From positions 51,726 through 115,725 of the forward strand of contig JAKLKQ010000006.1 in assembly GCA_023150555.1 (NCBI GenBank): a DNA stretch of 64,000 nucleotides, given 5' to 3'. Position 1 is the first letter of the stretch, and each line of letters starts with the position of its first letter. This document shows positions 8,225-63,812 of the stretch, piece after piece. This stretch comes from Planctomycetota bacterium. Its GTDB lineage: Bacteria > Planctomycetota > SZUA-567 > H5-PLA8. The position numbers and the translations under genes were made by a program. The notes under the pieces are model-generated. The model ran no database searches. It saw only the letters and a list, made by a program, of their open reading frames with translations, and was not told the origin of the DNA.

Positions 8225-9595
8225 ATGCGCTCGAGCGTTTCGTCCCGCACGTTGCTTGCCGCCGCGCTGCTCGCCTGCTGCGCGGGCTCGGCCTGGTCGG
8301 CGGAGCTGGTCCTGACCAACGGCATCCGCGTGAAGGGTACCATCGCGAAAGAAGACGCCAACGGCTTCGACGTCGACGTCGGCGGCGCGCAGATGCACTT
8401 CGACCGCGCGAAAGTCTACACCGTCAGCGACCAGGGCAAGGTGCGCGTGATCACGCCCAAGGAGGTGGCCGTGCCCCCGCCTCCACCTCCGCCGCCGCCA
8501 ACAGCGACGAAGGCCGAACCGCCTGCGACGCCCGCAAAGAGCGAACCGCCGCCGCCCGCGCAAACACAAACCGCGCCACCCAGCGCGACAAAGACCGTCA
8601 CACGCACGCGCGCCGAAGTCGAGGCGCTGATCAAGAAGGAGGGCACCAGCAAGCCGCCCTGGTGGGACCAGTCGAGACTCAACTACCCGCAATCGCTGGA
8701 CATGACATGGCCCTTGAAGCCCAACGGCGGCTGGAACAACCAGGTCAACGTCGGGCAGTACATCTGGGACATCGTCAATCCGAACCCCGACCGCTGGCTG
8801 GAAGGCCTGCGCCTGGTCCACCACCTCATGCAGACCCACGCCAACGACGCCGAACTGCTCAAGCGCGACCTGCGCACCCTCGGCAGCATGTACCACAACC
8901 TGATGGAAGACTACCCGCGCGCGGCCTGGTTCTGGCGCAACGCCGGCGCAAATCACGAAGGCGTCGCCGATTGCTACTGGAAGATGGGCTGCAAGGAGAT
9001 GGCCGTCGAACTGCTCAAGCAGCTCGGCAACGACGACACGCGCCACGGCACGATCATCAAGCTCTGGGCCGACATGGGCGAACTGGACACGGCTCTGCGC
9101 CTGGCCGAAGCGAAAGCCAAGGACGGCCGCCCCGAGGTTGCCTACCTGGCCGCCGGCGAGGCCTGCCGCAAAGCCGGCCAGTTCAAGCGCGCGCTCGATT
9201 TCTTCCAGCGCGTCCTGGCCGTGCAGCAGAACGACACGCAGACCCGACAGAACGACTTCAAGCAGACCTACGAACGCGCGAAGGCCAGCATCGAAGCCAT
9301 CCAGGTCTACGAGATGCTCGACCTCGCGAAAGTCCGCGACGGCACCTACTCCAGCGACAGCTACGGTTACTCGGGGCAGGTCTTCGTCGACGTGACCGTC
9401 CAGCGCGGGAAGATCACCGACGTGAAGGTGCCGCGCCATACCGAGCGTCAATTCTACGGCGCCCTCGACAACACGACGAAGCAGATTCTGGACAAGCAGA
9501 GCGTGAAGGACATCGACACCTTCTCCTCCGCGACGATCACCAGCGAAGCCATCGTCAACGCGGCCGCCAAGGCCCTGGCCAGCGGCATGAAATAG
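8225..9595 (+). CDS. Secreted FMN-binding-domain protein (probable ApbE flavinylation substrate) with a Pro-rich linker and helical middle domain
   Basis: Signal peptide, a 10-proline run, and a C-terminal FMN_bind-like domain (YSGQVFVDVTVQRGKITDVKV...SVKDIDTFSSATITSEAI) with the D-x-x-S-S-A-T flavinylation-like motif. Confidence 0.75.
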   Translation: MRSSVSSRTLLAAALLACCAGSAWSAELVLTNGIRVKGTIAKEDANGFDVDVGGAQMHFDRAKVYTVSDQGKVRVITPKEVAVPPPPPPPPPTATKAEPPATPAKSEPPPPAQTQTAPPSATKTVTRTRAEVEALIKKEGTSKPPWWDQSRLNYPQSLDMTWPLKPNGGWNNQVNVGQYIWDIVNPNPDRWLEGLRLVHHLMQTHANDAELLKRDLRTLGSMYHNLMEDYPRAAWFWRNAGANHEGVADCYWKMGCKEMAVELLKQLGNDDTRHGTIIKLWADMGELDTALRLAEAKAKDGRPEVAYLAAGEACRKAGQFKRALDFFQRVLAVQQNDTQTRQNDFKQTYERAKASIEAIQVYEMLDLAKVRDGTYSSDSYGYSGQVFVDVTVQRGKITDVKVPRHTERQFYGALDNTTKQILDKQSVKDIDTFSSATITSEAIVNAAAKALASGMK

Positions 9596-9624
9596 GCTGC
9601 GCAGGCGCGCTACGGACGGGATAG

Positions 9625-11517
9625 ATGTTCCGACTCGATTTTTTCCTTCCGTTCCTCGCGCGCCCGCGGAAGGGCGAGGCGCCCCGCGCGCCGGGGCGCC
9701 TGGCCCGCGTCGCGCGCGTCGTGCTGCCCGCCGCGCTCTTCTCCGATCCGGCCGCCGCGAAGCCCGGGCTGGTCCGCCGCGCGCTCAAGAAGATCGGACC
9801 CATCACCGCGTATTCCCCGTTGCGCCGCGCGGTGCAGGCGCTCTGCTTCGTGCTCTTTCTCGTGCTTTTCTTCCACGTCTGCTGGCCGTACAGCGCGCAG
9901 CCCGGCGGGAAGCTGGAGCTGGATAGCGGCGCGTGGCCCGCGCACTACGCGATCGACCTCGACGCGAAGGAGTGGACCGAGGCGGAGCTCTTCCTGGTGC
10001 TCGACCCGCTGGTGGCGCTCTCGACGGCCGTCGCCGCGAAGGCGTGGGTCTGGTCGCTCGCCTGGGCGGGCGGCATCCTCCTTATATGCGTGCTCTTTCC
10101 GCGCGGCTTCTGCGGGTACCTCTGCCCGCTCGGCACGCTGATCGATTTCTTCGACTGGGCGATCGGCAACCGGGTGCAGCGCTTCAAGATCGAAGGCGAC
10201 GGCTGGTGGGTGCACTTTAAGTACTACCTGCTCGCGGGAATCTTCCTCGCGGGGTTCTTCGGCGTGCTGCTGTCGGGCATCTTCGCGGCGATCCCGGTGA
10301 TCACGCGCGGCTTCCTCTTTATCTTCGGCCTGCTGCAGATGGGCCTTCTGCGGGGCTGGCACCAGGTCCCGCCGCTGAACGCCGGGCATTACGTCTCGAT
10401 CGCGCTCTTCCTGGGCGTGCTCGGCCTGGGTCTGCTGCGCAAACGCTTCTGGTGCCGCTACGTCTGCCCGTCGGGCGCGGTCTTCAGCGTCTTCAACCGC
10501 TTCCGCGCCAGCGAGCGCAAGGTCGAGTCGAGCTGCATCCACTGCGACAAATGCATCGAGGTCTGTCCTTTCGACGCGATCAAGGCCGACTTCACCACGC
10601 GCACGCCCGACTGCACGCTCTGCCAGACCTGCGGCGGCGTCTGCCCCACGCACTCGATCAAGTTCGTCGAACGCTGGAACGTGCAGGACCTCAAGCCCCA
10701 GAACGATCCGCCCACGATGGAAGTGCCGCTCAGCCGCCGCAACTTCCTCTACGGCGCGCTGGGGTCGCTCGCCGCTGTCAGCGGCATGCGCAACGTTTTC
10801 GGCGCGGATCTCGGGAGCTCCAACGCTTTCCTACCCGTGCGCCCGCCCGGCAGCGTGCCCGAGCCCGAATTCCTGCAGCTCTGCATCCGCTGCGGCGAAT
10901 GCTTCAAGGCCTGCCCAAACAACGTGCTTCAGCCGCTGGGCTTCGAGCAGGGCTTGGAAGGTCTCTGGACGCCGCAGGTCGTCGCCGACTGGTCGGGCTG
11001 CGAGACCAGCTGCAACAACTGCGGCCAGGTCTGCCCTACGGGCGCGATCCACGCACTGTCGCTGGAAGAGAAGAAGGTCGCGCGCATGGGCCTGGCCATC
11101 GTCAACCGCGAGACGTGCCTGCCGTGGGCCGGCAAGGAAGCCTGCCAGCTCTGCTTCGACGAATGCAATGCCGCGGGTTACCGCGCGATTGAGTTCCAGA
11201 ACGTCGGCACGCAGGTCGACGAGGAAGGCCTGCCCATCGACGGCAGCGGCTTCCTGGCGCCGGTGGTGAAACCCGAACTCTGCGTCGGCTGCGGCCTGTG
11301 CCAATCGCGCTGCCACCACGCCGTCGTGCAGCTGAAGAAACTCGAAGAGAGCGCCATCGTCGTCGAAGCCGGCGCCGGCAAGGAAGACCGTTTCATGCAG
11401 GGCAATTACCTGGAACTGCGCGCGCAGGAAGCCGCCGAGCGCCGCCGAAAGCAGGAAGAGTTCGAGAAGGCGCACGGCGCGGCCGGCGACGGCTACCTGC
11501 CGGAGTTCCTGAAATAA
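9625..11517 (+). CDS. NapH/MauN/NosR-type membrane polyferredoxin (multiple 4Fe-4S clusters)
   Basis: Membrane CGYLCPLG and CRYVCPSG motifs typical of NapH/MauN/NosR, followed by several CxxCxxCxxxCP ferredoxin motifs (CIHCDKCIEVCP, CTLCQTCGGVCP, CIRCGECFKACP, CNNCGQVCP, CVGCGLCQSRC). Confidence 0.8.
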   Translation: MFRLDFFLPFLARPRKGEAPRAPGRLARVARVVLPAALFSDPAAAKPGLVRRALKKIGPITAYSPLRRAVQALCFVLFLVLFFHVCWPYSAQPGGKLELDSGAWPAHYAIDLDAKEWTEAELFLVLDPLVALSTAVAAKAWVWSLAWAGGILLICVLFPRGFCGYLCPLGTLIDFFDWAIGNRVQRFKIEGDGWWVHFKYYLLAGIFLAGFFGVLLSGIFAAIPVITRGFLFIFGLLQMGLLRGWHQVPPLNAGHYVSIALFLGVLGLGLLRKRFWCRYVCPSGAVFSVFNRFRASERKVESSCIHCDKCIEVCPFDAIKADFTTRTPDCTLCQTCGGVCPTHSIKFVERWNVQDLKPQNDPPTMEVPLSRRNFLYGALGSLAAVSGMRNVFGADLGSSNAFLPVRPPGSVPEPEFLQLCIRCGECFKACPNNVLQPLGFEQGLEGLWTPQVVADWSGCETSCNNCGQVCPTGAIHALSLEEKKVARMGLAIVNRETCLPWAGKEACQLCFDECNAAGYRAIEFQNVGTQVDEEGLPIDGSGFLAPVVKPELCVGCGLCQSRCHHAVVQLKKLEESAIVVEAGAGKEDRFMQGNYLELRAQEAAERRRKQEEFEKAHGAAGDGYLPEFLK

Positions 11518-11795
11518 CCTACCCGCCCTTTCCCTCCCGCTTGACCCGGCCCTCTTCGTGGCGTATCTTTAGTAACTGCCTACGCTTGGGAGATTTGAAC
11601 GCTTTGTCTTATCCGACGCGAACGCACGCCTACGCTCCCTTCCCCACGGGAGCGCTCCTGCGCGCCCCGGGCGTTCTGCCCGGTCCCTGGCGCTCGATGC
11701 CGGGCTGTTGTCGCTTCGCCTGTTGTTGACGGCGAGGCGGGCCGGCGGTCGGCCCGCTCGAAAAGCGACCCGGTTCGACAAGGAAATCTTCGATC

Positions 11796-13382
11796 ATGGC
11801 ACTCCTGGAACAGATTCTCTCGTACAGCGGCATGCTCGTGGGCGGCGCGGTGCTGCTGGTGCTTGCGGCGCTGCTGCTGGTCTCCCTGCTCAGCGCGTTT
11901 CTGCGGCCCGCGTCGGTGAGCGAGGTCCTCAGCGACCTGCGCGCGATCCGCGAACGCGACCCGGCGGCCGAAGGCTGGATCGCGGCGATGTTCTATCCCG
12001 GCTGGTGGGCGCTCTCGGGGCACCGCCTGGTGGCCAACCCGCTCTACCGCATCGGGCTGCGCACGCCCGCGCGGCTGGTGAACTTTCTGCTGCGCCTGCT
12101 GACCGGCACGGACATCCATCCCGGCGCGAAGTTCGGGCGCGGGATCTTCATCGACCACGCGCACGGCGTGGTCATCGGCGAGACGGCCATCGTCGGCGAC
12201 AACGTCACCATCCTGCACCAGGTCACGCTGGGCGGCACCGGCAAACAGACTGGCAAGCGCCACCCGACCGTCGAGGAAGGCGTGCTGATCTCGGCGGGCG
12301 CGAAGGTGCTGGGCAACATCGTCGTCGGCAGGAACGCGAAGATCGGCGCGGGCTCGGTGGTCGTGCGCGAGGTCCCGCCCGAAAGCACCGTCGTCGGCGT
12401 GCCAGGCCGCGTGGTCGTCAGCGCCGGCAAGCGCATCCCCAGCGTGACGCTGGACCAGACCGACCTGCCGGACCCCATCGTCGAGCGCCTGATGGCCCTG
12501 CAGGAGGAGCTGAAGAGCTGGGAGAAGAAACTCGAGGAAGACGAAGTTGAGCTGCATCGCATCGGCGGGCGCGCCAGGCGCGACGTGCTGGCCGAGATCG
12601 TCGAGCACAAGAAGACCGAGGTCGCCGCCGCGAAGGGTCTTTGTCCGCTGGATGCACTCCGCGGCACGCCGGGCAAGCGCGGCGCTGCGCGGAGTTTTCA
12701 TGCCGCACTGAAGGCCGAGGGCCTCTCGCTGATCGCCGAGATCAAGAAGGCCAGCCCCAGCGGCGGCCTGCTGCGCGCCGACTTCGATCCGAAGGCGATC
12801 GCGAAGATCTACGAGCATGCGCACGCCGCGGCGCTGAGCGTGTTGACCGACGAGAAATATTTCCAGGGGAAGCTGGATTACCTGGCCGAGGTTCGCGCGG
12901 CCGCGGCGCTGCCGCTGCTGCGGAAGGATTTCATCATCGACGAGTACCAGGTCGTCGAGGCCGCGCGCGCGGGCGCCGACGCCGTGCTGCTGATCGCCGC
13001 GTGCCTGAACGATTCGCAGCTGAAGGGCTATCGCGAGCTGGCCGAACGCGAGGGCCTGGACGCCCTGGTGGAAGTCCACGACGAGGCGGAACTCGAGCGC
13101 GCGCTCGCCAGCGGCGCGAAGATCCTGGGCATCAACAACCGCAACCTGAAGACGCTCAAGACCGACCTCGAGACGACCTTCCGGCTGCTCGACAAGCTCG
13201 ACCCGAAGACCCGCGCCGGCCTGGCCGTCGTCAGCGAGTCGGGCATCAAGACCCACGCCGACATCGAGCGCCTGCTGCACGCGGGCGTCGACGCGGTGCT
13301 GATCGGCGAAACCTTCATGCGCGCGCCCGATATCGGCGCAAAGGTCCGTGAGCTGCTCGGCGTGGGCCAGTATTCGATCTGA
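11796..13382 (+). CDS. Serine O-acetyltransferase (CysE) fused to indole-3-glycerol-phosphate synthase (TrpC); start uncertain (possible GTG near 11915)
   Basis: N-terminal half has the CysE hexapeptide core DIHPGAKFGRGIFIDHAHGVVIGETAIVGDNVTILHQVTLGG. C-terminal half has IGPS motifs LIAEIKKASPS, SVLTD..YFQG, LRKDFI, LGINNRNL and SESGI. One uninterrupted 528-codon ORF. Confidence 0.75.
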   Translation: MALLEQILSYSGMLVGGAVLLVLAALLLVSLLSAFLRPASVSEVLSDLRAIRERDPAAEGWIAAMFYPGWWALSGHRLVANPLYRIGLRTPARLVNFLLRLLTGTDIHPGAKFGRGIFIDHAHGVVIGETAIVGDNVTILHQVTLGGTGKQTGKRHPTVEEGVLISAGAKVLGNIVVGRNAKIGAGSVVVREVPPESTVVGVPGRVVVSAGKRIPSVTLDQTDLPDPIVERLMALQEELKSWEKKLEEDEVELHRIGGRARRDVLAEIVEHKKTEVAAAKGLCPLDALRGTPGKRGAARSFHAALKAEGLSLIAEIKKASPSGGLLRADFDPKAIAKIYEHAHAAALSVLTDEKYFQGKLDYLAEVRAAAALPLLRKDFIIDEYQVVEAARAGADAVLLIAACLNDSQLKGYRELAEREGLDALVEVHDEAELERALASGAKILGINNRNLKTLKTDLETTFRLLDKLDPKTRAGLAVVSESGIKTHADIERLLHAGVDAVLIGETFMRAPDIGAKVRELLGVGQYSI

Positions 13383-13420: not shown

Positions 13421-16414
13421 GTGATACTTTACCTTCTTACAACCTATTCGAAACCGGAGGGTGCCGCCGTGGCCGAAGAGCGCGAGATCAACCTGTCCGA
13501 GAAGTTCCCCGACATGACGCCGCTACGCGGCGCGCCGTCGCTGGGCACCATCAACGGCATCGGCGTGACGCTGACCGGCCGGCGCGACTTCGACGCCGAG
13601 ACCGGCACCTACGTGAAGACCCGCAGCCTCTGCTTCCTGTTCATCCCGCTGGTCCCCATGGACGCTTATCGCGTCGCCGACGCACGCGGCGGCGGCTGGT
13701 ATTTCATCGGCAAGGTGCCCCTCTCGGGCTTCTGCAAGATCTGGAACCTCTGCATCCTGGGCCTGATCCTGGCGTGCATCGGCGCCGGCTACATCAACAG
13801 CTACTACGCCAGCCCCGAGTACGTGAACGGCCAGCGCCTGACCGAAGCCCGAAACCTGAGCGGCAACGGAAAGACGGAGGAGGCGCTGGGCAGGTACGAG
13901 GCCGTCGCCGCCAGCGGCACCAGCCACGCCAGCACCGCGAAGGCCGAAGCTCTGGAACTCTTCCAGGAACGCGTTGGCCAGTGCGACGCCGCCGAGGCCA
14001 AACGCCTGTTCGCTTTCCTCGCCGCGCGCCGCAACGCGCCGGCGCATCTGGTACCCGACCCGACGGCCGCCGAAGCCGCCGCTGCCGCCGTGGCGCGATA
14101 TAAGGAGCAGGACCCGCTGGCCGCGTTCGAGATCCACCGCCTGGCGCGCGTCTTCACGCCCAACCCGCCGGATCCCGACCCGGACTACGAGCCCCTGCTG
14201 GAGGCCGCGCGCGCCGCGCACCCCGAGAACAACGAGCTCGCCATCGAGGCCGCCGCGAATTTCGAGAAACTCGGCCAGCTGGACAAGGCCAAGGCCACTC
14301 TGGAACCCCTGGCCGGGAAGCTGGGCGCCACCGAAGGCGCGCGCATCCTGGGGCAGCTCTACGCGCGGGAGGAGCAGCACGAAAAGGCCTTCGCGCTGCT
14401 GGAACCCTACGCGCAGCAGCACCTGAGCGCCCTGCACGCGGCCGACGACGCCTATGAGAAAGCGCTGAAGGCCAGCAACGACCGCGCCATCGACGAACTC
14501 AACCGCAAACTGACCACCGACCCGTGGGTGCGGCAGTACCAGAAGCAGGACAAGGCGGGCCAGGAGAAGATGGTCAGCGAATACGTCCTGGAACGCATGA
14601 AGGTGGACTCCGCGCTCCATGCGGTTCAGGAGAAACTGGCCCAGGCAGCTTCGACCGTCCCGGTCGCGCTGGATCTGGGCATCGTCCGCCTGTACCGCGG
14701 GCGCGAGATAAAGGATCCCGAGGCCAAGAAGAAGGAGCTCGAGGCCGCCGAGAAGGTCTTCCTCTCCATCCGCAACGTCGCGGGCGAGTCCGACGCCTAC
14801 CGCATGTACTACGGACAAGTCCTGTACTGGCTCGGGAAGCACGAGGAAGGAAAGGCGGCCTTCGACGAATTGCTCGCCTCCAAGAACCGCAACCACGAGA
14901 CGCTGCTGGGCGTCGGCAATACCCTGCGCGAAATTGGCGCGCATTCCGAAGCCAACGTGTTGTTCGAGGAAGCCTACAACCAAGCTACGAAGGTGGAGGA
15001 GAAGCAGCAGGCCGCCGCCATGCGCCGCCTTTCCGCCAACGACATGGACGACCACATCCTCTGGCTGGGGCGCTGCGACACCAGCAAGCCGCACGTCCAG
15101 GCAAGCCTCGAGGCCGCCAAGGGCAAGAAGATGCTCAGCGACGGCGACCGCGCGGGCGCCATACCGCACCTGAAGGCGAGCATCGCGGCGTGGGAGAAGC
15201 TCCCCCGCAGCGACGGCTCCCTGAACGAGATCGCGCTTGCCCAATCCTCGCTCTTCTATGCCAGCGGCGACCCCGAAGCGTTCCGCCAGGGCGCAAAGCT
15301 GCTGCGCGAGGCCGTGGGCCTGAATCCCAGCGACAGCATTCTGGTCCTGAACGCGGCGTCCAGCCTGCTCGAGGCATCCGTCCTGGACGAGGTGTCCGGA
15401 AAGCTCAATTTCACGCACGGCGGCATCTCCATCGACCTGGATCTCCTCGACTATTTCGCCGGCGAACAGAAGGACGAGCAGGCGCTGCGCGCGCGGATGC
15501 AGGCGCGCACCGACTTTAAGGACGCCAAGAGCCTGTATCGCAAGGCGATTCTGCTGGCACCCCGGAATGCCGGCGGGTACGGCACCTTGCGCGAAATCTA
15601 TGCGTGGGAAGACGATCTCGACGCGCTCAAGGAACTAAAGACTGCGCTCAAGGGCATCGAACTGGTCGGCGAGGACCAAAAGGCGAAGACGCTGGCGTTC
15701 TACGCGGGTTCGAACGACCCCGCCATCATTGGCGATTGGGACAAGGCGCTCGCTACGGGACGCACGCAGCTCGCCTCGGTTCCTAAGGATAAGGAAGCGA
15801 TGACCTGGGTCGTCACGGCCGGCACCTACATCCAGACGTGCCTGGCCGCGCACGCGATAGGCAATCCCATCGAACTGGAGCCGCTGTTCCGGATGGCCCA
15901 ACAGGCCTACGCCATGGCGCCCAGCAACGGCACCTCCAGCATCCTTTCCACCATGCACCTTTACCGCGCCTTCGAACGCCTGGCGGCCGCCAACCCGGCC
16001 TTCAAGGAGGGGCAGGAGCGGAACAGCCGCGTGATGAGCCGGACGCAGTACTTCGCGCTGGCCCTGGAACAGATACCGGCACTGCGCGATCCGGCCCGTC
16101 AGGACCCCGACGTGAAGGCAGCCCTGGACCTGATGCGCGAGCAGGACAGGAAGTTCCCGAAGCACCCCAGCGCGTGGAAGTGGGCGGTCTGCAAATACCT
16201 CGATCCAGAGGAAGCCGAAGTCATCGCCAAGGACCTGCACGCGGATCCGATTTCGCCGATCGCGCAGGACGTCCGCGAGATGATCTATCCCATGTCCGGA
16301 AACCATGCCCTGTACGGCCTCTGGCTGCGGCGCGTGCTGGGGCAGGAAGGCGAAGGCCTGGCGCTGTACGAAGCCTGCCGCAAGCGCGGCGTGCCTTTAC
16401 CCGAAAAGCCGTAG
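13421..16414 (+). CDS. Large TPR-like repeat protein with N-terminal membrane anchors (hypothetical)
   Basis: Two hydrophobic helices near the N-terminus, followed by ~850 aa of alpha-helical repeat sequence. Protein-like composition throughout. Start codon uncertain. Confidence 0.6.
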   Translation: MILYLLTTYSKPEGAAVAEEREINLSEKFPDMTPLRGAPSLGTINGIGVTLTGRRDFDAETGTYVKTRSLCFLFIPLVPMDAYRVADARGGGWYFIGKVPLSGFCKIWNLCILGLILACIGAGYINSYYASPEYVNGQRLTEARNLSGNGKTEEALGRYEAVAASGTSHASTAKAEALELFQERVGQCDAAEAKRLFAFLAARRNAPAHLVPDPTAAEAAAAAVARYKEQDPLAAFEIHRLARVFTPNPPDPDPDYEPLLEAARAAHPENNELAIEAAANFEKLGQLDKAKATLEPLAGKLGATEGARILGQLYAREEQHEKAFALLEPYAQQHLSALHAADDAYEKALKASNDRAIDELNRKLTTDPWVRQYQKQDKAGQEKMVSEYVLERMKVDSALHAVQEKLAQAASTVPVALDLGIVRLYRGREIKDPEAKKKELEAAEKVFLSIRNVAGESDAYRMYYGQVLYWLGKHEEGKAAFDELLASKNRNHETLLGVGNTLREIGAHSEANVLFEEAYNQATKVEEKQQAAAMRRLSANDMDDHILWLGRCDTSKPHVQASLEAAKGKKMLSDGDRAGAIPHLKASIAAWEKLPRSDGSLNEIALAQSSLFYASGDPEAFRQGAKLLREAVGLNPSDSILVLNAASSLLEASVLDEVSGKLNFTHGGISIDLDLLDYFAGEQKDEQALRARMQARTDFKDAKSLYRKAILLAPRNAGGYGTLREIYAWEDDLDALKELKTALKGIELVGEDQKAKTLAFYAGSNDPAIIGDWDKALATGRTQLASVPKDKEAMTWVVTAGTYIQTCLAAHAIGNPIELEPLFRMAQQAYAMAPSNGTSSILSTMHLYRAFERLAAANPAFKEGQERNSRVMSRTQYFALALEQIPALRDPARQDPDVKAALDLMREQDRKFPKHPSAWKWAVCKYLDPEEAEVIAKDLHADPISPIAQDVREMIYPMSGNHALYGLWLRRVLGQEGEGLALYEACRKRGVPLPEKP

Positions 16415-16487: not shown

Positions 16488-17924
16488 ATGAGCAAATCCG
16501 AAAGTCAAAAATTGCTGTACTTGGATCCGTTCAGCGGGATCGCCGGCGACATGCTCGTCGGCGCGCTGCTGGACCTGGGCCTGAATCTCGAGTTCCTCGA
16601 GGCCGAGCTGAAGAAGCTGAAGCTCGATGGGTATACCCTTTTCTCCGGACCCGTCCTGCGCGGCGCGATCGCCAGCACCAAGTTCGACGTGCTCATCAAC
16701 GGCCAGACCGAAGCCCAGCACGGTCACGCGCACTGCGGCTGCGATCATGATCATGCCCATTCGCACGACCACGAGCACGAGCACGGCCATTCGCACGAGC
16801 ACGAACATCATCACGATCACAGTCACGACCACGACCATAAGCACGATCATGGGCATCATGATCACGGCCACGGCCATCACCATCATCACCAGCACGGCCA
16901 TGACCACAATCACGAGCATCGCCACGCGCACGACCACCGGCACTTCGGCGACATCAAGAAGATGATCGAAACGAGCGGGCTCAGCGCGGGCGTTAAGGCG
17001 CGGAGCCTGCGCGCGTTCGAACTGCTTGCCGAAGCCGAGGGCCGCATGCACGGCCAGGCGCCGGAGCAGGTCGCCTTCCACGAAGTCGGCGCCGTCGACA
17101 GCATCGTGGACTTCGTCGGCGCGTGCATCGGGCTCGAAGCGCTGGGCATCACCGAAGTCCTCTGCGGGCCCATCGCGCTGGGCGGCGAAGGCGGCGGCTA
17201 CGTCGACTGCGCGCACGGCAAGCTTCCCGTCCCGGCCTTCGCCACGCTGGAGCTGATGAAGGGCCTTCCAGTGCGCCCCTGCGCCGTGAACAAGGAACTC
17301 ACCACGCCCACCGGCGCCGCGCTGCTGAAGGCGCTGGTCACCGACTTCGGCCCGCTGCCGCCGATGCGCATCGAGAAGATCGGCTACGGCGCGGGCACGC
17401 GCAACGATCCGAACATCCCCGTGCCGAACGTCCTGCGCGCCGTACTGGGCACGTTGGACGCGAAGGCTTCCGGCGACGACGCGGAGTCCGACACCATCGT
17501 CGAGATCCAGGCCAATGTCGACGACGCCGCACCCGAAGTGCTGGGCTACCTCAGCGAGAAGCTGCTGGCGGCCGGTGCGCTGGATGTGTTCTTCACGCCG
17601 GTGCAGATGAAGAAGTCGCGCCCCGGCACGCTGGTGACGGTGCTCGCCGACGCCGCGCACTTCGACGCGCTCGCCGAAGCGCTCTTCCGCGAGACGCCCA
17701 CCTTCGGGCTGCGCTACGAGCACAAGCAGCGCCGCAAACTCGCGCGCGAGACCGTGACCGTCGAGACGCCCTGGGGTACGGTGCGCGTGAAGCTGGGCCG
17801 CTGGCGTGGCGCGTTCATGAGCGCGCACCCCGAGTACGAGGACTGCAAGGCGCTGGCCGAGCAGAAGGGCGTGCCGCTGCGCCAGGTCATCGACGCCGCG
17901 CGCGCGGCCGCCCCGAATGCGTAA
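16488..17924 (+). CDS. larC: LarC (nickel-pincer cofactor nickel-insertion protein, DUF111 family) with a ~75-residue His/Asp/Glu-rich insertion
   Basis: N-terminus LLYLDPFSGIAGDMLVGALLDLG and a conserved C-terminal domain. The insertion runs HGHAHCGCDHDHAHSHDHEHEHGHSHEHEHHHDHSHDHDHKHDHGHHDHGHGHHHHHQHGHDHNHEHRHAHDHRH. Confidence 0.85.
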   Translation: MSKSESQKLLYLDPFSGIAGDMLVGALLDLGLNLEFLEAELKKLKLDGYTLFSGPVLRGAIASTKFDVLINGQTEAQHGHAHCGCDHDHAHSHDHEHEHGHSHEHEHHHDHSHDHDHKHDHGHHDHGHGHHHHHQHGHDHNHEHRHAHDHRHFGDIKKMIETSGLSAGVKARSLRAFELLAEAEGRMHGQAPEQVAFHEVGAVDSIVDFVGACIGLEALGITEVLCGPIALGGEGGGYVDCAHGKLPVPAFATLELMKGLPVRPCAVNKELTTPTGAALLKALVTDFGPLPPMRIEKIGYGAGTRNDPNIPVPNVLRAVLGTLDAKASGDDAESDTIVEIQANVDDAAPEVLGYLSEKLLAAGALDVFFTPVQMKKSRPGTLVTVLADAAHFDALAEALFRETPTFGLRYEHKQRRKLARETVTVETPWGTVRVKLGRWRGAFMSAHPEYEDCKALAEQKGVPLRQVIDAARAAAPNA

Positions 17925-43283: not shown

Positions 43284-46200
43284 CTACTTGCCGCTTAACG
43301 CCTTGGCTTTCTTCGCAAGGTCGATGAACTCGGCGCGCTGGCCTTCCGCGTCGGCGCCCTTGCTCTCGCCGGCCAGCTCCAGCACGAAGTCCCAGTTCAA
43401 ATTCTTCGCGTAGACGCTGCCGCGCAGCAGCATGCCGAAGGCGGCGACCGAGGACGCGAAGCGGAAGTCCGGGCTGCTCTGTTCGAGCTTCTTTCCGCCG
43501 TCGCGCACCGGGACGCTCAGTTCCGTGCTCTTGTCTTCCTCGGGCTGCTTGTAGCGCAGCCACACGGTCAGCAGCTCGCCGCTGGTCTTCGCGTCTTCCT
43601 TGACCTTGGCTTCCTCGAGGTACCGCGACGCGCGTTCGGCGGGCGCCTTGGGCGCGGCCAGCTCGGCAAGTTTGACGGTGCGCTTGACCGTCGTCTTGAT
43701 CACGTTCGCGTCGGCGACGGCGCTGACTTCGAACTCGTACTCGCCGTCGGCCGTGGGCAGGAAGTACGCGTTCGGGCGGTCGGCGTCGCGCAGGTCGGCC
43801 TTGGGGCCGCCCGTCTGCTTCCAGATGAAGGTCAGCTTCGCGACTTCTTCGGGCTTGGCGTTCAGCAGCAGCACGTCCAGAGGCACGCGCACGGGCTGCA
43901 CGGCTTCCTCGGTGCCGGCTGGAATCACCTCATACAGCGCGGTGACGGCGTGGCCCGCGCCGATCTCGCCGGCGTCCTTCGTGTCGTCGGCGAAGTCTTC
44001 CTTGCGCATCAGGCGGTTCTCGTAGCCGATCAGGCGGTAACTGTGCGCCGTCGCGGGATTGAATTCGACCTGCACCTTCACGTCCTTGGCGATGGTCACC
44101 AGCGTGCCGGCCAGCTCCTGCCCGAAGACCTTCTTCGCTTCCTGGAACGAGTCGATGTACGCGTAATGGCCGTTGCCCTTGTCGGCGATGGCTTCGAGCT
44201 TGTCGTCCTTATAGTTGCCCATGCCGAAGCCGAGCACGCTCAGGAAGACACCGCTCTTGGCCTGTTTCTCGATCAGCTTCACCAGTTCGTCGTTGCTGGT
44301 GGTGCCGACGTTGAAGTCGCCGTCGGTGCAGAGGATCACGCGGTTGGTGCCGCCGGCAATGTGGTTCTTCGCCGCGATCGCGTAGGCCTTCTGGATTCCG
44401 TCGCCGCCATTGGTGCTGCCGCCGGCGTTCAGCGCGTTGATGCGTTCGAGGATGCGGCGCTTCTGGTCGCAGGGCGTGCTCTCCAGCTCGACCTTGATCG
44501 TGTCGCTGTAGGTCACGATGGCAACGCGGTCGCGGGCGTTGAGGTTGTCGACGAGCAGGTTCAGGCCCTGGCGCACGAGGTCCAGCTTGTTCGCGTCGCC
44601 CATCGAGCCGCTGACGTCGACGAGGAAGACCAGGTTGCTGCTGGGTCGGCTGTTCGGATCGATCTCGCGGCCCTTCAAGGCGATGCGTACCAGGCGGTGC
44701 GCGGCGTTCCACGGGCAGGTGGCGACCTCGATGTGCGTGGCGAAGGGCTCCTTCGCGTCGCTGGGCGGCGGCTCGTACGCATAGCGGAAGTAGTTGATCA
44801 ACTCCTCGTAGCGCACCGCGCCGAGCGGCGGAAGCTGGTTGTCGTTTAGCCAGCGGCGCACGTTCGAGTACGACGCGGTGTCCACGTCGATGGAGAAGGT
44901 GCTGATCGTGCGGGCCTTCTCGAAGGGATTCTCGTTCACCACCGCGTAGGATTCGGTCTGGCGGCCTTCGTCGGGGTGCGGTGCAACGTAGCCCATGCGC
45001 CCGTGGTCGAACTCGCCGTCGACGCCCAGCAGCGCGAGGCCGCCGTCCTTGAACGCGCCGCCGATGCGGTAGTCGTCAAGGGAGCTCATCATATCGCTGA
45101 AGCGCCCGCCGATGCGCGTGAGGCGCCACCTGTCGTTGTTTTGTCCGCGCGCGGGATCCGCCGCGTTGAAGTGCCAGATGACCATCCCGCCGGGCGCTTC
45201 CGGTGCGGGCGTTGCAGGCGAGCGAGCGCCGGACCATTCGCCGCGGGTCCACAGTCCGCGCGTCGAGCCGCGGTCGGCCCAGAGGTTGTCGGTCAAGCGG
45301 TAGCCGGTGGCGACGTAGAAATCGCTAACAGCGGAAATTTCTTCGAGCACGCCAGCCGGATGATACGCGCGGAACTGGTCGGCCCAGTGCTGCTGCGTCG
45401 AACGGTATCCGGTGTCGAAGTTGAATCCTTGAAAATTGAAGTCGTGATGCGGGGTGACGCCGTGGTACTGCGCGTAGGCGTCTTCAATCGAAACCTTTGA
45501 CACCGAAAGGAAGTAATCTGGCGACGGCAGACCGTGAAGCGAATGAGGAACGATCTCTTGGTGCCGCGAACTACCGCGCGTATTACGCCAAGCATCTTCC
45601 TTGCTCATCAGTCCATAGGCGACGGCCCAATTGGCGTTGTTGATATCACGCGCATTGTACCAGCGGTCGCGGATGCCTTCCTCGCCGATGATCACGCTGT
45701 CGGCGATTCGTTTCTGCGTCTCCATATCAAACCTAAGCTGCCCGCGGCGGATGGCGAAGCCGTCGTTGTCTTCCTGCGGGGCATACACATCGTTGAGATT
45801 GATGCCGCTGTCCCGCGAAATGCCTACGGCAACGTTGTCGTTCTGGATGGTGTAGAACCACGTCTGCACCAGCCCGCCCATGGTGAGCTTGCCTTCTTTC
45901 GTCGTCACGCCGGCGTTGGGGCCATACTTGTCCTCGACGACAGTGTCAGCGGAGCCGATGGACGCAACGGCAGGAGCGTTCGTCTTCTGTTCTTTGGCCA
46001 ATTGCTCGCGCAGCTGCCTTAAATCTTCGCGAAGCTGCCTGATCTCTGCGGTCTCCGAGTTTTCGCCACCTTGTATTGTTGGGGCCTTTTTTACCGTCTC
46101 TTTCTTCTGTGCAATCTGGCCTTCAAGCTTCGCGATTTCGGTCTTGATTATCCCCTCGGGACTCGTGATTTCCCAGACCGGAAAGCCCTTTTCGAGGATG

Positions 46201-47618
46201 CCGGGCTTCGGCGCGTCGGTCGTCTTCTTCGTCTCCGCGATCTCGGCCTCGGGCTTCGCGTCGGCGGTGGCCGTCGAGTCTGCAAGCGGCGGGCCCGGTC
46301 GGCGCGAAGCATCGCCGTAGCGAATGCCAAGATCCAGTTGTCTGAAGCTACCGTCGGACCTGGACGCCACTTCGCGCGAAAGACCTTGGATCAATTGGGG
46401 ATGCTCTGCCCAACGGTACCAACCACTGGCAATTGCGGCCTCCGTGCGCTCCGGGGGAGGCGGCGGTCCTGGCGAATACGTCAGCTCAGGCGAGGCCGGA
46501 TGATACGGCGCAACCGGATCCGCTTCTTCCTCCAGCCGCTCCTTACCCAATTCTTCGTTCATCAGGTGCCAGGTGCCTTCGATGGTGTTCGGCGAACTGT
46601 TAATCTGAAGATCAACCGCATCCTCGGTCCTGTATTTCTCCGGCGCCCAAGCGAGCGACGTCTGAAGCCGCTCCTCGCCGATCTTCAGATTCTCGTCCGT
46701 AACTCGGTCGACTTCTTCGAGAAGCTCGGAGATCTTTTGGTTGTGGCGCTGGATTACCGCGGCGCGCGGCGCGACGGCAGTCTCCATGTTCACTTCCGCG
46801 CCCATCCAGCCCGCACCGCTACTGGTCCCGCCTGAACTGGACGTGGCGCTGCCGCTGCCCGGCTGGGCGTCTGCGGCATCCGTTACAGAGGCAATAAAGG
46901 CCCCCAGCTTCTCATGCTGCACACTCAGGTTCTCCTGGACGTCGGCCGACAAATTCGCATCGTTGTGTACGCCGTCGATAGTGATGCCGTTGCCCGCCTT
47001 GAACTTCCCGATCTGAAATTCGAGCGCGGTGTCCAGGTCCAAAGTATTCGACGCGGCCTGGTCTTGCGCCGGCGTCGGCATGTCCACCGCAACGGACGAG
47101 GACGGACTCATCTGTCCGTACGAAGCCACCAGCAGGCCCACCAGCACGGAGATGACCAGCGTCGCGGCGACGGCGCCGAGCGCGAAGTAGCGCCGGAAGG
47201 GTGACGGCGCGGGCCGCGTGGCTTCCCGCGCGCGGCGCCCGCTGCCGGCGGCGGCGTGCGGTTTTTCCGATACGGTGCTTACGGTTTGTGTAGGAGCTTC
47301 GTCCTCGAATGCGGCGGCCATGAGGGCTTCGGCGCTCAGAGCACTGGCTAGCCGGCCGCCTTTCACCGAGGAGGACTCCGTGGCGCCCAGCCCAACGCAG
47401 AGCGTTTCGCCCGTCGCGCGCAGGTCTTCGACGTACTGGCGCAGTTCGGGGTCGCGCGCGATCGCTCCGGCGATGGCCGCGATGCTTTCCTCGTCGAGCG
47501 CCTCGAGTTCGCCCAGCGCGTAGGCGGTGACGCGCGGGTCGTCCCGCCAGCCGCCGTTCGCGGCTTCGGCGCCGTTCTTCCAGGCGATCGTTTCGTTGTT
47601 CTGGTCGTGCTCGCTCAT
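43284..47618 (-). CDS. Giant anti-sigma-factor::YfbK-type vWA fusion protein (1444 aa)
   Basis: N-terminal anti-sigma-like cytoplasmic domain (RVTAYALGELEALDEESIAAIAGAIARDPELRQYVEDL), one TM helix, a large periplasmic region, and a C-terminal vWA (LVFLVDVSGSMGD) + DUF3520-like module as in YfbK. It starts 27 bp after the ECF sigma gene. Confidence 0.75.
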   Translation of the reverse strand: MSEHDQNNETIAWKNGAEAANGGWRDDPRVTAYALGELEALDEESIAAIAGAIARDPELRQYVEDLRATGETLCVGLGATESSSVKGGRLASALSAEALMAAAFEDEAPTQTVSTVSEKPHAAAGSGRRAREATRPAPSPFRRYFALGAVAATLVISVLVGLLVASYGQMSPSSSVAVDMPTPAQDQAASNTLDLDTALEFQIGKFKAGNGITIDGVHNDANLSADVQENLSVQHEKLGAFIASVTDAADAQPGSGSATSSSGGTSSGAGWMGAEVNMETAVAPRAAVIQRHNQKISELLEEVDRVTDENLKIGEERLQTSLAWAPEKYRTEDAVDLQINSSPNTIEGTWHLMNEELGKERLEEEADPVAPYHPASPELTYSPGPPPPPERTEAAIASGWYRWAEHPQLIQGLSREVASRSDGSFRQLDLGIRYGDASRRPGPPLADSTATADAKPEAEIAETKKTTDAPKPGILEKGFPVWEITSPEGIIKTEIAKLEGQIAQKKETVKKAPTIQGGENSETAEIRQLREDLRQLREQLAKEQKTNAPAVASIGSADTVVEDKYGPNAGVTTKEGKLTMGGLVQTWFYTIQNDNVAVGISRDSGINLNDVYAPQEDNDGFAIRRGQLRFDMETQKRIADSVIIGEEGIRDRWYNARDINNANWAVAYGLMSKEDAWRNTRGSSRHQEIVPHSLHGLPSPDYFLSVSKVSIEDAYAQYHGVTPHHDFNFQGFNFDTGYRSTQQHWADQFRAYHPAGVLEEISAVSDFYVATGYRLTDNLWADRGSTRGLWTRGEWSGARSPATPAPEAPGGMVIWHFNAADPARGQNNDRWRLTRIGGRFSDMMSSLDDYRIGGAFKDGGLALLGVDGEFDHGRMGYVAPHPDEGRQTESYAVVNENPFEKARTISTFSIDVDTASYSNVRRWLNDNQLPPLGAVRYEELINYFRYAYEPPPSDAKEPFATHIEVATCPWNAAHRLVRIALKGREIDPNSRPSSNLVFLVDVSGSMGDANKLDLVRQGLNLLVDNLNARDRVAIVTYSDTIKVELESTPCDQKRRILERINALNAGGSTNGGDGIQKAYAIAAKNHIAGGTNRVILCTDGDFNVGTTSNDELVKLIEKQAKSGVFLSVLGFGMGNYKDDKLEAIADKGNGHYAYIDSFQEAKKVFGQELAGTLVTIAKDVKVQVEFNPATAHSYRLIGYENRLMRKEDFADDTKDAGEIGAGHAVTALYEVIPAGTEEAVQPVRVPLDVLLLNAKPEEVAKLTFIWKQTGGPKADLRDADRPNAYFLPTADGEYEFEVSAVADANVIKTTVKRTVKLAELAAPKAPAERASRYLEEAKVKEDAKTSGELLTVWLRYKQPEEDKSTELSVPVRDGGKKLEQSSPDFRFASSVAAFGMLLRGSVYAKNLNWDFVLELAGESKGADAEGQRAEFIDLAKKAKALSGK

Positions 47619-47645: not shown

Positions 47646-48266
47646 TTACGCGCGCGCCGCGTTGCTCTCTCCGTCCTCCGCTACGCGCCGCGCTGCCATG
47701 CGTCCCGAATTATCCGTCGAATTCGCATCGAAATTCGCCGCTTCCTTCGCGCCGTCCGCCTTCATTTCCGTGCGCATCGCCTGCATGGCCTTGTGAAGGA
47801 GGAAGCCGACGTTGGTGACGCTGCGCCCGGTGACGCGCGCGATCTCGCGGTAGCTCAGGCCGTGCTGGAACTTCAGCCGCACCACTTCCTGCTGCAGCGC
47901 AGGCAATTTGACGAGCGCCTCGCGCATGCGCGCGCCGTCTTCGCGGTGCTCGGCGAGGGCGTTCGGTTCGGGCGTGAGGGCTTCCTTCTGCGCGAGCGCC
48001 ACTGAGGCGCTGCGCAGCCGGCGGTCCTTGCGGTGGGCGTCGATGGCGCGGCTGCGGCAGACGGTGTAGAGGCGTTCGCGGAGGTTGCCGTTCAGCGAAC
48101 CGGGGTCCTGGCGGCAGAGCCAGAGGAAGGTCTCCTGCACGGCGTCGCGCGCGCGGTCGGGATCGCCGGTCAGGCGCTGGGCGTAGTGCTCCAGCGGCCC
48201 CCCGAAGCGTTCGAGGGCCTCGCCGACCCAGCGGGTCGCATCGGCCTGGCTATCCACCGCGCTCAT
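47646..48266 (-). CDS. ECF RNA polymerase sigma factor
   Basis: Sigma70 region 2 (ERFGGPLEHYAQRLTGDPDRARDAVQETFLWL) and region 4 (LQQEVVRLKFQHGLSYREIARVTGRSVTNVGFLLHKAM). The track ORF extends to 48320. Confidence 0.8.
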   Translation of the reverse strand: MSAVDSQADATRWVGEALERFGGPLEHYAQRLTGDPDRARDAVQETFLWLCRQDPGSLNGNLRERLYTVCRSRAIDAHRKDRRLRSASVALAQKEALTPEPNALAEHREDGARMREALVKLPALQQEVVRLKFQHGLSYREIARVTGRSVTNVGFLLHKAMQAMRTEMKADGAKEAANFDANSTDNSGRMAARRVAEDGESNAARA

Positions 48267-48394
48267 TTCGATTCGCTCGGGCTCCGCTCCCCTGCGCCCG
48301 CCACCGCTTTCGCCCCCCACTACGGATGAGAGCGACTTTTCTTAGCGCCTCCGGACCGAATTCCGAGAATTCCGGCGTCGCGAAAGGCTTGCCA

Positions 48395-63700: not shown

Positions 63701-63812
63701 CTGGGACCTGATCGAGAAGACCGCCGCGGACGCCAAGGGCAAGGACGAGCTGGGCTACCGCGCCGAATTCCTGGACCTGGTTGCGAAGGCCCGCGCGCTG
63801 CCGAAGCGCTGA
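60738..63812 (+). CDS. Membrane-anchored prenyltransferase/terpene-cyclase-like alpha-toroid repeat + YfbK-type vWA/DUF3520 protein (true start probably ~60870-60940)
   Basis: TM helix VAAAFHVLLLALSGVVAMVALPYF, repeat motifs QNQDADGGWD / KQHQLPDGRLAG, and a C-terminal ~480 aa about 65% identical to the C-terminus of the 43284-47618 protein (LVFLVDVSGSMSAD MIDAS). Confidence 0.75.
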   Translation: MNANEGSPGASTPSERPLIKEAAPSAPGALAARGWLRGLVEYLAQTRWWAVAAAFHVLLLALSGVVAMVALPYFGQGETYSTLSLVHPPAPEYDEKPARDVFLKPMPVDANSAPIENPMVTHETIEFGDHSETEVSNSFDTQMLRGAAGMSDMPMGGSGTVAAIGFGGGGGGAYGCSSYAGAGGRRRLAMRGGGALATTERERRAYAVDPRVAAAVRWLAQNQDADGGWDCKAFGGKEHDVAVTGMALLAFLSAGSTEMEGPYRDQVRRAVTYLKQHQLPDGRLAGAGGEGDGYAHAIAGMSLAEAAGQGRVSDTIRAAQQAAFWSAALPDVPDAAWRYRGPGGEGDLSVTGWYVLQLDAARANGLRVSDHALDQARAFLDRVSVKEKGAAATKYLYRPGGKESVRLDAIGAACDLLLGDGRSPAHGLRALPDARTPDLYYWYYGTLAAFQAGGHPWKQWHGALYRTLASTQRRGGAETGSWDPAGDYADHWGRVGQTALSALCLNVYNRNLPAAPDSTAGLAPAPAPEPKPQALENPQDAVDPVANTESYDPIDEATFTKVIGADALSTFDIDVDTASYSNVRRFIQGGDLPPAGAVRIEELVNYFDYDYRAPDNGDAFAVRTEINECPWSPAHRLALVALKGRELERAKPEARPSSNLVFLVDVSGSMSADNKLPLVQQGLRLLVDNLNAKDRVAIVTYAGHAGVALESTPCGDKRGILNAINSLGAGGGTNGAQGILTAYELAKKGFIPGGANRVILCTDGDFNVGVTSRDELLDLIKEQARSNVFLTVLGFGMGNYKDSTLELLADKGNGTYGYIDTFTEAKKVFQNDLDATLVTIAKDVKIQVEFNPAKVAAYRLIGYENRVMAAKDFRDDTKDGGEIGAGHRVTALYELIPFGDPGASAVRGAGPLKYQETAKSSAAAQNGELFTVYLRHKQPEGDSATERDVAVRDAGLGWKDASANLRWASAVAMFGFQLRGSAHKGRTGWDLIEKTAADAKGKDELGYRAEFLDLVAKARALPKR
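60783..60804. promoter_or_regulatory. Second copy (reverse orientation, 20/21) of the CGCCTCCTTTATAAGGAGGCG palindrome
   Basis: CGCCCCCTTATAAAGGAGGCGG lies inside the annotated 5' end of the vWA ORF. This argues that the real start codon is downstream and that the motif is a promoter/operator. Confidence 0.3.

Follow-up and report, generated by a model that had tools for sequence, protein, structure and literature searches.

A single gene of an uncultured planctomycete very probably encodes a membrane-tethered, bifunctional enzyme in which serine O-acetyltransferase (SAT, CysE) is joined to indole-3-glycerol-phosphate synthase (IGPS, TrpC), with a tail of the type that docks O-acetylserine sulfhydrylase (OASS, CysK) placed after the IGPS barrel; we infer the two activities, the trimeric state, the anchoring, and the docking. 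The gene lies in a window of 64,000 nucleotides, the whole stretch of DNA that was analysed, and is a genuine and vertically inherited fusion of an uncultured Planctomycetota lineage. It is intact, both of its domains are complete, their motifs are conserved, the fusion recurs in relatives, and the N-terminal transmembrane (TM) helix and the C-terminal tail are conserved and specific. The proposed order of parts is a putative membrane anchor, a short SAT, a linker made of an LPDP motif plus a helix, IGPS, and an aromatic-x-Ile tail, with the following coordinates.

11796..13382, + strand: whole fusion gene, comprising TM helix, short-type SAT, helical linker, IGPS (TrpC), and Ile tail (528 codons plus TGA)
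11832..11900, + strand: predicted single N-terminal transmembrane anchor MLVGGAVLLVLAALLLVSLLSAF (residues 13-35)
11931..12410, + strand: serine O-acetyltransferase core, a short N-terminal helical stub followed by a left-handed β-helix (residues 46-205)
12426..12581, + strand: inter-domain linker, the native C-terminal extension of a short-type CysE (residues 211-262)
12582..13358, + strand: complete IGPS, an N-terminal helical extension followed by a (β/α)8 barrel (residues 263-521)
13359..13379, + strand: flexible tail GVGQYSI-COOH, a candidate motif for docking in the CysK/OASS active site (residues 522-528)

The earlier note on this DNA had proposed a search for the same fusion in related genomes, and over 100 protein clusters, 47-72% identical, indeed combine Hexapep with IGPS; those that carry a name all come from uncultured Planctomycetota MAGs. 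Among the MAG assemblies with the fusion are GCA_038227875.1, GCA_016200135.1, and GCA_016307145.1, whose group A proteins have the C-terminal tail, and GCA_016930595.1; the fusion protein P0057 is tail-less. At 50% identity, the fusions form three clusters among 1.84 billion representatives. Subgroup A is the window's own, and the tail counts given below cover 59 proteins of this group and 45 of subgroups B and C. A genome-collection scan with the fusion alignment relied on the SAT-generic patterns GKRHPT.. and FIDH..GVV; among the matches listed, 79 of 80 loci are stand-alone short SATs and one is a fusion (L001). No description of a CysE-TrpC fusion was found in the literature, including a 2025 survey of CysE diversity.

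The N-terminal half of the protein appears to be a serine O-acetyltransferase of the short isoform, which would form O-acetylserine from L-serine and acetyl-CoA. Residues 46-205 match the NCBIfam cysE model TIGR01172 (profile positions 3-162 of 162) at 214.8 bits, a narrow margin over the cutoff of 210.65, with a Pfam Hexapep match at residues 156-189 and matches to the PDB sequences 8i04/1t3d at ~1e-50. The motifs RDPA (D55), DIHP (D106), IDH (D120/H121), and GKRHP (R155/H156) align with the RDPA, DIHP, LDH, and DRHP motifs of the solved CysE 8i04, and these catalytic and binding residues are invariant in the 26 fusion proteins of alignment A1, except that position 106 may be D or E. In E. 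coli SAT, the catalytic Asp-His dyad and the Ser/Cys-binding residues are D92, D143, D157/H158, and R192/H193 in the established numbering. The short-strand ladder of the β-helix is predicted by AF2 at residues 105-209 (pLDDT ~85-94). A housekeeping CysE identity is further suggested because cysS adjoins the fusion gene in two loci, abutting it in L091 and lying directly upstream in L088, and because stand-alone relatives are found in ispF/gltX-cysE-cysS clusters.

The linker is simply the native LPDP-plus-helix C terminus of such a short-type CysE. It pairs an LDxxxLPDP motif (L219-P227) with an amphipathic helix over residues ~227-255, with L224, P225, and D226 invariant in the fusion alignment, and stand-alone short SATs end with the same motif and helix. 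AF2 models helix 227-255 at low confidence and residues 252-261 at pLDDT below 50.

The C-terminal half is a complete TrpC by sequence and would catalyze conversion of CdRP to IGP, CO2, and H2O. It matches Pfam PF00218 at residues 265-520 over the entire profile (1-254 of 254; E 1.2e-86; 290.5 bits against a threshold of 27) and the NCBIfam TrpC model NF001377 at residues 263-521 (model positions 2-256 of 259; 324.8 bits against a cutoff of 260). The PDB sequence 3tsm is matched at 6e-64, and this half is ~50-55% identical to bona fide structures of IGPS. Its motifs are IAEIKKASPS (E315, K317), LRKDF (K377), VEVH (E426), NNRNL (N447, R449), and SESGI (E481, S482); the residues E315, K317, K377, E426, N447, E481, and S482, mapped by motif rather than by structure superposition, are aligned to 3tsm and invariant in alignment A1. 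The established catalytic and substrate-binding residues of S. solfataricus IGPS are E51, K53, K110, E159, N180, and E210/S211. In the AF2 model, helices at residues 264-305 precede eight β/α units, at pLDDT above 90. A separate IGPS translated from an internal in-frame GTG at V264 was considered and rejected, as homologs have I or F at this position and the start is not conserved.

Residues 13-35 include no charged residue and reach a 19-residue Kyte-Doolittle mean of 2.9, so that the hydrophobic N-terminal stretch pointed out in the earlier note is real. In more than 50 group A homologs, the hydrophobicity of this TM helix is conserved while its sequence varies, and AF2 predicts an N-terminal helix at residues 2-36 with pLDDT ~90. 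The anchor is without a basic n-region, and a cytoplasmic location of the catalytic domains is suggested because the first basic residue, R37, sits on the C-terminal side of the helix. Membrane insertion in this topology is likely. An N-terminal hydrophobic helix is also present in L026, L032, and L021, stand-alone short SATs from MAGs of Planctomycetia and Omnitrophota, which argues that the TM-SAT module is older than the fusion; the helix is a trait already present in a short SAT of the PVC group.

The other end of the protein offers a candidate for regulatory contact. In 53 of the 59 group A proteins, the tail ends in [YFW]xI, with [D/E][Y/F]x-Ile-COOH as its usual form, as in DYSI, DFSI, and DYVI, and an aromatic-x-Ile end is found in none of 142 stand-alone IGPS representatives and in none of the 45 group B and C fusions. 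Because it is absent from those 142 representatives, the tail is apparently not a structural element of IGPS; because six group A proteins and all proteins of groups B and C are missing it, it appears dispensable for the fusion as such. DFSI, with which eight fusion proteins of group A end, is identical to the end of M. tuberculosis CysE, for which docking to CysK/OASS has been experimentally validated (2Q3C), and DYVI is the Arabidopsis SAT tail, likewise validated in OASS docking with a Ki of 4 μM; both peptides are micromolar competitive ligands at OASS active sites. Among the matches listed, 22 of 75 stand-alone SATs have an Ile C terminus. The tail of the window's protein is QYSI, without the acidic residue at -4 that most relatives, as well as DFSI and DYVI, possess. 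AF2 leaves residues 524-528 disordered (pLDDT below 50). The spacer between the last IGPS helix and the motif is 2-6 residues long and ~2 in most members, while the motif itself, in the last four positions, is invariant; so short a spacer may be sterically tight for insertion of the tail into the CysK cleft. The chance that the Ile tail docks CysK falls slightly short of even.

In the mechanism proposed here, the left-handed β-helix would trimerize as in other short CysE isoforms, and such a trimer would face the membrane with its three TM helices and carry the three IGPS barrels at its opposite end. The barrels would act independently, with no predicted fixed interface between domains and no shared intermediate. 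In group A, the free Ile tail following IGPS may enter the active site of CysK, recreating at the new C terminus the docking site of the cysteine synthase complex.

A competing reading, possible though leaning toward the improbable, takes the fusion to be genuine and neutral, a frozen accident in which two housekeeping activities are co-expressed and the tail is unrelated to CysK. The C-terminal motif could then mark the protein for degradation, act as a PDZ-type signal, or cap the IGPS domain structurally; more generally, a hydrophobic-x-hydrophobic C terminus could be recognized by something other than CysK, for example a protease or a PDZ domain. Such neutrality would fit the members of groups A, B, and C that function without the tail, the short spacer ahead of it, and established biochemistry, in which SAT and IGPS have no pathway intermediate in common. 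In the AF2 model of the whole protein, likewise, both domains are confident, the linker has low confidence, and no inter-domain interface is predicted (pTM 0.53), and neither the 64-kb window nor the flanks (~20 kb) of seven fusion loci contain cysK, cysM, or another trp gene. However, the tail is absent from the 142 stand-alone IGPS representatives, it is disordered in the model, in many members it reproduces validated OASS-binding tetrapeptides residue for residue, and the other half of the protein that bears it is the natural partner of CysK.

Genomic context provides few other clues to function. Neither in the window nor at group A and B loci does any trp or cys gene flank the fusion, with the exception of cysS in some group B loci, and no Rfam or tRNA match that would indicate an upstream regulatory RNA such as a T-box or riboswitch occurs anywhere in the window. 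Synteny of larC with the fusion gene is conserved in group A. This last observation, along with a membrane anchor unusual among enzymes of amino acid biosynthesis and the fact that the SAT half also passes the EpsC model NF041874 (189 against 150) while just barely passing TIGR01172, would suit a neofunctionalized protein, in which EpsC or another O-acetyltransferase and an IGPS paralog with a new substrate serve an unknown membrane-associated pathway outside Cys and Trp biosynthesis. This is highly improbable: the top-scoring models are the CysE and TrpC equivalogs, both enzymes keep all the residues that bind substrate or take part in catalysis (D106 again as D or E), relatives retain linkage to cysS, and the IGPS half is as close to authentic IGPS structures as noted above.

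The earlier note had described one 528-codon open reading frame holding a complete CysE core followed by a complete IGPS with signature motifs in both halves, and had left two explanations, a true fusion with both functions or two genes run together after loss of a stop codon. The description holds in full, with both TIGR01172 and NF001377 above their cutoffs, and the PDB sequence matches to SAT and IGPS structures fall on non-overlapping halves. The frame starts with ATG, ends with TGA, and encodes 528 amino acids, as seen both in the open reading frame listing and in the sequence. GC at codon position 3 is 0.75-1.0 in this frame over the entire gene, including the SAT/IGPS junction, where the note had advised looking for a frameshift or stop; as this signal stays in frame throughout, nothing suggests a hidden frameshift. 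The identical protein is encoded on 12 contigs, each assembled independently, and five further 528-residue variants, 93-96% identical, differ by substitutions only, even in the linker. Errors of this kind do occur in the family: P0109 resembles a frameshifted fusion gene, and P0087, at first sight a “CysS-SAT-IGPS” triple fusion, results from a frameshift late in cysS, at its 3' end, with the real CysS C terminus and stop in another frame. For the gene in the window, the notion that adjacent cysE and trpC were joined through loss of a stop codon, contig chimerism, or a mistake in sequencing or assembly is almost inconceivable and already effectively refuted by the 12 contigs and the substitution-only variants, by the unbroken coding signal and a junction region kept at the protein level, and by an in-frame architecture that over 100 clusters share across many different samples and assemblers (NCBI, JGI, ENA, and Logan sources). 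These same observations, together with the completeness of both halves, favor the genuine fusion, in which bifunctionality at the enzymatic level is probable.

Another high-scoring candidate relative, P0129 (944 residues), was set aside because it is a scrambled, plant-like SAT in multiple copies and has no IGPS. Features of the protein that the earlier note had missed are the TM helix as an older trait of short SATs, the conserved Ile tail of CysK-docking type, and the linker as the native CysE C terminus.

Comparison with known systems shows what is familiar in this protein and what is not. Like the short (“truncated”) CysE of the B. subtilis, S. aureus, and M. tuberculosis type, it is without most of the SATase_N domain, and the two share the β-helix core, the catalytic motifs, the LDxxxLPDP-plus-helix C-terminal extension, and, in relatives, linkage to cysS. 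Unlike short CysE, the fusion carries a TM helix ahead of its SAT domain, and an entire IGPS barrel separates its Ile tail from the C-terminal helix of the SAT. With the CysE-CysK cysteine synthase complex and other CysK partners that end in Ile, it has in common a flexible aromatic-x-Ile tail with a free carboxylate, but its candidate tail hangs on the IGPS domain rather than on the SAT β-helix, and by a very short spacer. An IGPS barrel shares a polypeptide with another enzyme also in E. coli TrpC-TrpF (PRK09427) and actinobacterial IGPS-TrpB (PRK13802), models that the fusion matches over the IGPS region only (278 against 380 and 172.9 against 1386, both below cutoff). In contrast to these, its partner enzyme comes from outside the Trp pathway, and its IGPS is C-terminal, whereas that of TrpCF is N-terminal. 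The TM-anchored stand-alone SATs L026, L032, and L021 resemble the fusion in the hydrophobic helix, in an SAT core that is 44-51% identical, and in an end made of LPDP plus helix, but they have neither IGPS nor the Ile tail and are located in the ispF/gltX-cysE-cysS cluster.

As both enzymes are textbook ones, joining them is in itself no more than a modest curiosity. Its practical consequence is that pipelines annotate the protein as “TrpC” only or as “serine O-acetyltransferase” only, and such one-sided annotation can give false predictions of Cys or Trp auxotrophy for Planctomycetota MAGs. Structurally, it is of interest as a biosynthetic SAT with a conserved membrane anchor, and for regulation the interest lies in a CysK-docking-type Ile tail kept or re-invented after addition of a 260-residue foreign domain: either trpC was inserted ahead of a tail that was ancestral, or the tail was gained later, following one fusion event. 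L-Serine is drained into Cys via SAT and into Trp via TrpB. A further and improbable proposal would make IGPS more than a passenger and build it into a membrane-tethered cysteine synthase complex, with CysK docked on the Ile tail behind the barrel, in which O-acetylserine/sulfide-controlled association of CysK also modulates IGPS, or the ligand state of IGPS modulates CysE/CysK; if true, this would directly link the regulation of the two main L-serine drains at the planctomycete membrane. If CysK does bind the tail, the fusion would show a C-terminal short linear motif both constraining and surviving domain fusion, and would represent a natural three-enzyme assembly joining cysteine and tryptophan synthesis.

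The fusion gene is a single open reading frame of 528 codons (window 11796-13382, + strand), running from ATG to TGA in both the ORF listing and the sequence, as the earlier note had described it. The G+C content of the window is 66%, and third-codon-position GC in the gene's own frame stays at 0.75-1.0 throughout, including the junction at ~12540-12590, so that nothing suggests a concealed frameshift. Family matches within this frame agree with the reading of a complete CysE core followed by an IGPS (TrpC) barrel:

Residues 46-205: CysE (serine O-acetyltransferase, SAT) equivalog TIGR01172 (NCBIfam, model 3-162 of 162, 214.8 bits, cutoff 210.65)
Residues 156-189: hexapeptide-repeat segment (Pfam)
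Residues 263-521: TrpC (indole-3-glycerol-phosphate synthase, IGPS) equivalog NF001377 (NCBIfam, 324.8 bits, cutoff 260)
Residues 265-520: full-length IGPS domain (Pfam, profile 1-254 of 254, E 1.2e-86)

The protein is thus a member of both CysE, by a narrow margin on the HMM cutoff, and TrpC, and its halves match different solved structures without overlap (SAT, 8i04 and 1t3d at about 1e-50; IGPS, 3tsm at 6e-64).

Of the two origins proposed earlier, a genuine fusion gene and a pair joined by a lost stop codon, the first stands and the second is rejected. A full-length search of a 5.8-billion-protein collection recovers more than 100 clusters with Hexapep and IGPS domains, all source-named matches coming from uncultured Planctomycetota MAGs; 12 contigs of independent run assemblies encode the exact window protein, and five more 528-aa variants (93-96% identity) differ by substitutions only, several within the linker. 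These fusions form group A, which includes the window's protein (P0002-P0059; about 515-560 aa, 62-72% identity, query coverage 93-100%), group B (about 470 aa, 47-54% identity), and a small group C with a longer linker (P0099, P0103, P0105). Exhaustive HMMER searching of 1.84 billion representatives at 50% identity yields three true fusions (P0050, P0076, P0103), the remaining matches being stand-alone IGPS or SAT, and the family is real but phylogenetically narrow.

Some apparent variants of this architecture do not survive inspection. P0087 (L088 22-2187), ostensibly a CysS-SAT-IGPS triple fusion, reflects a frameshift joining cysS to the downstream fusion gene, since the true CysS C-terminus (...DRVRSELARLGYEIEDAPGG...) and its stop lie in another frame; P0129 is a scrambled plant-like SAT. 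"Split" group A versions in metagenome assemblies, P0109 (323 aa; TM-SAT, then out-of-frame sequence) and P0130 (281 aa; the IGPS half, from within the linker to a terminal DYMI), are probably frameshift or contig-edge artefacts, real secondary fission being the less probable reading. A conserved internal start giving a separate IGPS at the in-frame GTG (V264) is unlikely because that column is I or F in homologs.

Five parts of the protein emerge from A1, in which 26 fusion proteins are aligned, from an AlphaFold2 model based on that alignment (mean pLDDT 85.5, pTM 0.53), and from the family matches:

Residues 2-36: long hydrophobic helix (A1, AlphaFold2)
Residues 38-210: short-isoform SAT, a four-helix stub and then a left-handed β-helix (A1, AlphaFold2)
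Residues 211-262: LDxxxLPDP motif and amphipathic helix at ~227-255 (A1; helix modelled with low confidence)
Residues 263-521: complete IGPS with N-terminal helical extension (AlphaFold2 pLDDT > 90)
Residues 522-528: C-terminal tail GVGQYSI-COOH (pLDDT < 50)

The hydrophobic N-terminus already seen in the sequence is borne out, residues 13-35 containing no charged residue and scoring 2.9 on the Kyte-Doolittle scale (19-residue mean). Across group A hydrophobicity is kept while sequence varies, which is the signature expected of a membrane anchor rather than of a folded core element. The helix is without a basic n-region and exceeds a signal-peptide h-region in length; the first basic residue, R37, comes after it, so that the positive-inside rule predicts cytoplasmic catalytic domains.

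Catalytic residues are present in both halves. The SAT motifs RDPA (D55), DIHP (D106), IDH (D120/H121), and GKRHP (R155/H156) align with enterobacterial CysE, and their residues, which correspond to E. coli CysE D92, D143, D157/H158, and R192/H193, are invariant in A1 with the sole exception of D106, which is D or E. The canonical IGPS motifs are all found (IAEIKKASPS, LRKDF, VEVH, NNRNL, SESGI), with E315, K317, K377, E426, N447, R449, E481, and S482 invariant. Residues 211-262, in which L224/P225/D226 are invariant in A1, do not constitute a novel linker: the same LDxxxLPDP motif and helix form the C-terminus of stand-alone short SATs, so that IGPS was appended at the extreme end of a complete short CysE.

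Most of the matches listed in a scan of a reference-genome collection were stand-alone short SATs, including TM-like forms at the following loci:

L026 9926-10621: TM-like stand-alone SAT, "uncultured Planctomycetia" MAG
L032 9917-10648: TM-like stand-alone SAT, "uncultured Planctomycetia" MAG
L021 864-1586: TM-like stand-alone SAT, Omnitrophota MAG

These proteins (231-243 aa) have the N-terminal hydrophobic helix and the LPDP-plus-helix end without IGPS, and thus the TM-anchored short CysE is an older module of the PVC group to which IGPS was added later. We know of no previous description of a membrane-anchored biosynthetic SAT. Upstream of their genes is ispF or gltX, and downstream is cysS. 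Linkage to cysS persists in some fusion loci, which supports the SAT half as the housekeeping CysE: in L091 the fusion gene (10001-11539) starts where cysS (8568-10001) ends, the two adjoining but unfused, and in L088 cysS immediately precedes the fusion gene.

Apart from cysS, no trp or cys neighbours occur at the fusion loci of other assemblies. In the 64-kb window the fusion gene is the only cys or trp gene, and tRNAs and Rfam matches are absent. The window's genes include ECF sigma/FecR, sulfatase, large VWA/YfbK proteins, dnaN, and aconitase, a scattered order typical of planctomycetes. The sole recurrent group A neighbour, treated here as conserved synteny, is a nickel-insertion gene of the larC type (PF01969, E 8e-139):

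Window 16488-17924, + strand: LarC-type gene, one gene away from the fusion gene
L081 11646-12947: LarC-type gene, directly downstream of the fusion gene
L082 11912-13399: LarC-type gene, directly downstream of the fusion gene
L089 11713-12903: LarC-type gene, directly downstream of the fusion gene

The window's LarC copy carries an unusually long His/Asp-rich insert at about residues 75-150 (HGHAHCGCDHDHAHSHDHEHEHGH...). In the window genome only, larC is separated from the fusion gene by a 997-aa ORF (13421-16414, + strand), whose start lies 39 bp beyond the end of the fusion gene. Pfam gives no match to it at E <= 1e-5; by eye it appears helical-repeat-like, and it has an N-terminal hydrophobic segment. 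A pair of + strand genes (8225-9595 and 9625-11517) directly precedes the fusion gene. One encodes a secreted or lipoprotein-like protein that combines a Pro-rich linker with an FMN_bind domain at the C-terminus; the product of the other is a membrane polyferredoxin of 630 aa with several 4Fe-4S motifs and Fer4_5, which recalls electron-transfer modules of the NosR/NapH/Rnf type. Two large vWF_A/VWA/YfbK_C paralogs lie farther along (43284-47618, - strand, 1444 aa; 60738-63812, + strand, 1024 aa), the first adjoining an ECF sigma factor gene (47646-48320).

The C-terminal tail is specific to group A: the last four residues are [D/E/Q/H][Y/F/W]x-Ile in 53 of its 59 proteins (DYSI 14, DYAI 8, DFSI 8, DYVI 5, EFAI 4, plus others; QYSI in the window protein), and the other six end directly after the last IGPS helix. 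The spacer that separates this helix from the motif is 2, 3, 5, or 6 residues long, yet the motif itself stays the same, so that the tail appears to behave as a tethered short linear motif. It is not an IGPS feature, since none of 142 stand-alone IGPS representatives carries it (only five are Ile-terminal); nor does any of 45 group B/C fusions.

SAT docks on CysK (O-acetylserine sulfhydrylase) through its C-terminal Ile, which anchors it in the CysK active site and in H. influenzae accounts for some 80% of the interaction energy. M. tuberculosis CysE natively ends in DFSI, a tail that has been crystallised in CysK1 (2Q3C), and Arabidopsis SAT ends in DYVI, which inhibits competitively (Ki 4 uM) and binds even heterologous enzymes (PMC9547175, PMC3388911). 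Among the matches listed, 22 of 75 stand-alone short SATs are Ile-terminal, e.g. cyanobacterial ...FLDGAGI. Because an ancestral SAT tail would become buried and lose its free carboxylate on end-to-end fusion, and because no such tail occurs in the PVC stand-alone SATs (L026, L032, L021) or in groups B and C, the most economical reading is that group A gained a CysK-docking-type motif at its new C-terminus; alternatively, trpC may have been inserted just upstream of an ancestral SAT tail. Whichever its origin, conservation of the tail argues for function.

Among candidate roles, CysK docking has the best support, at slightly less than even odds. Against it, the window tail has Q at -4 in place of the usual acidic residue, the spacer is short, cysK was not found within the 64-kb window or the flanks of fusion loci, and a hydrophobic-x-hydrophobic C-terminus could suit other readers. 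That the tail is unrelated to CysK, in a neutral fusion that became fixed, is a somewhat less likely account.

In the proposed mechanism the SAT β-helix would form a trimer, an arrangement already suggested for short CysE isoforms (PMC13040420). Three TM helices would then lie at one end and three independently acting IGPS barrels at the other, and the C-terminal tails would recruit CysK. The AlphaFold2 model has no confident inter-domain interface. SAT and IGPS have no intermediate in common, and the sole metabolic link between SAT and the Trp pathway is L-serine, used by SAT and by the tryptophan synthase beta reaction. The joining is not explained by pathway logic, and its neutral origin and later fixation are fully viable.

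The protein, tail included, resembles the M. tuberculosis-type short CysE, from which it differs in its interposed IGPS and added membrane anchor; it falls outside the bifunctional TrpC fusions described so far (TrpCF, IGPS-TrpB). Full-text literature searches and a 2025 survey of CysE diversity gave no description of a SAT-IGPS fusion; public databases already list the sequences under names for one function only, the NCBI pipeline calling them "TrpC" or, once, "serine O-acetyltransferase". The fusion as such is unsurprising in kind. The noteworthy features are the membrane-anchored SAT and the relocated CysK-docking-type tail, and the mis-annotation of these proteins bears on metabolic reconstruction of Planctomycetota MAGs.
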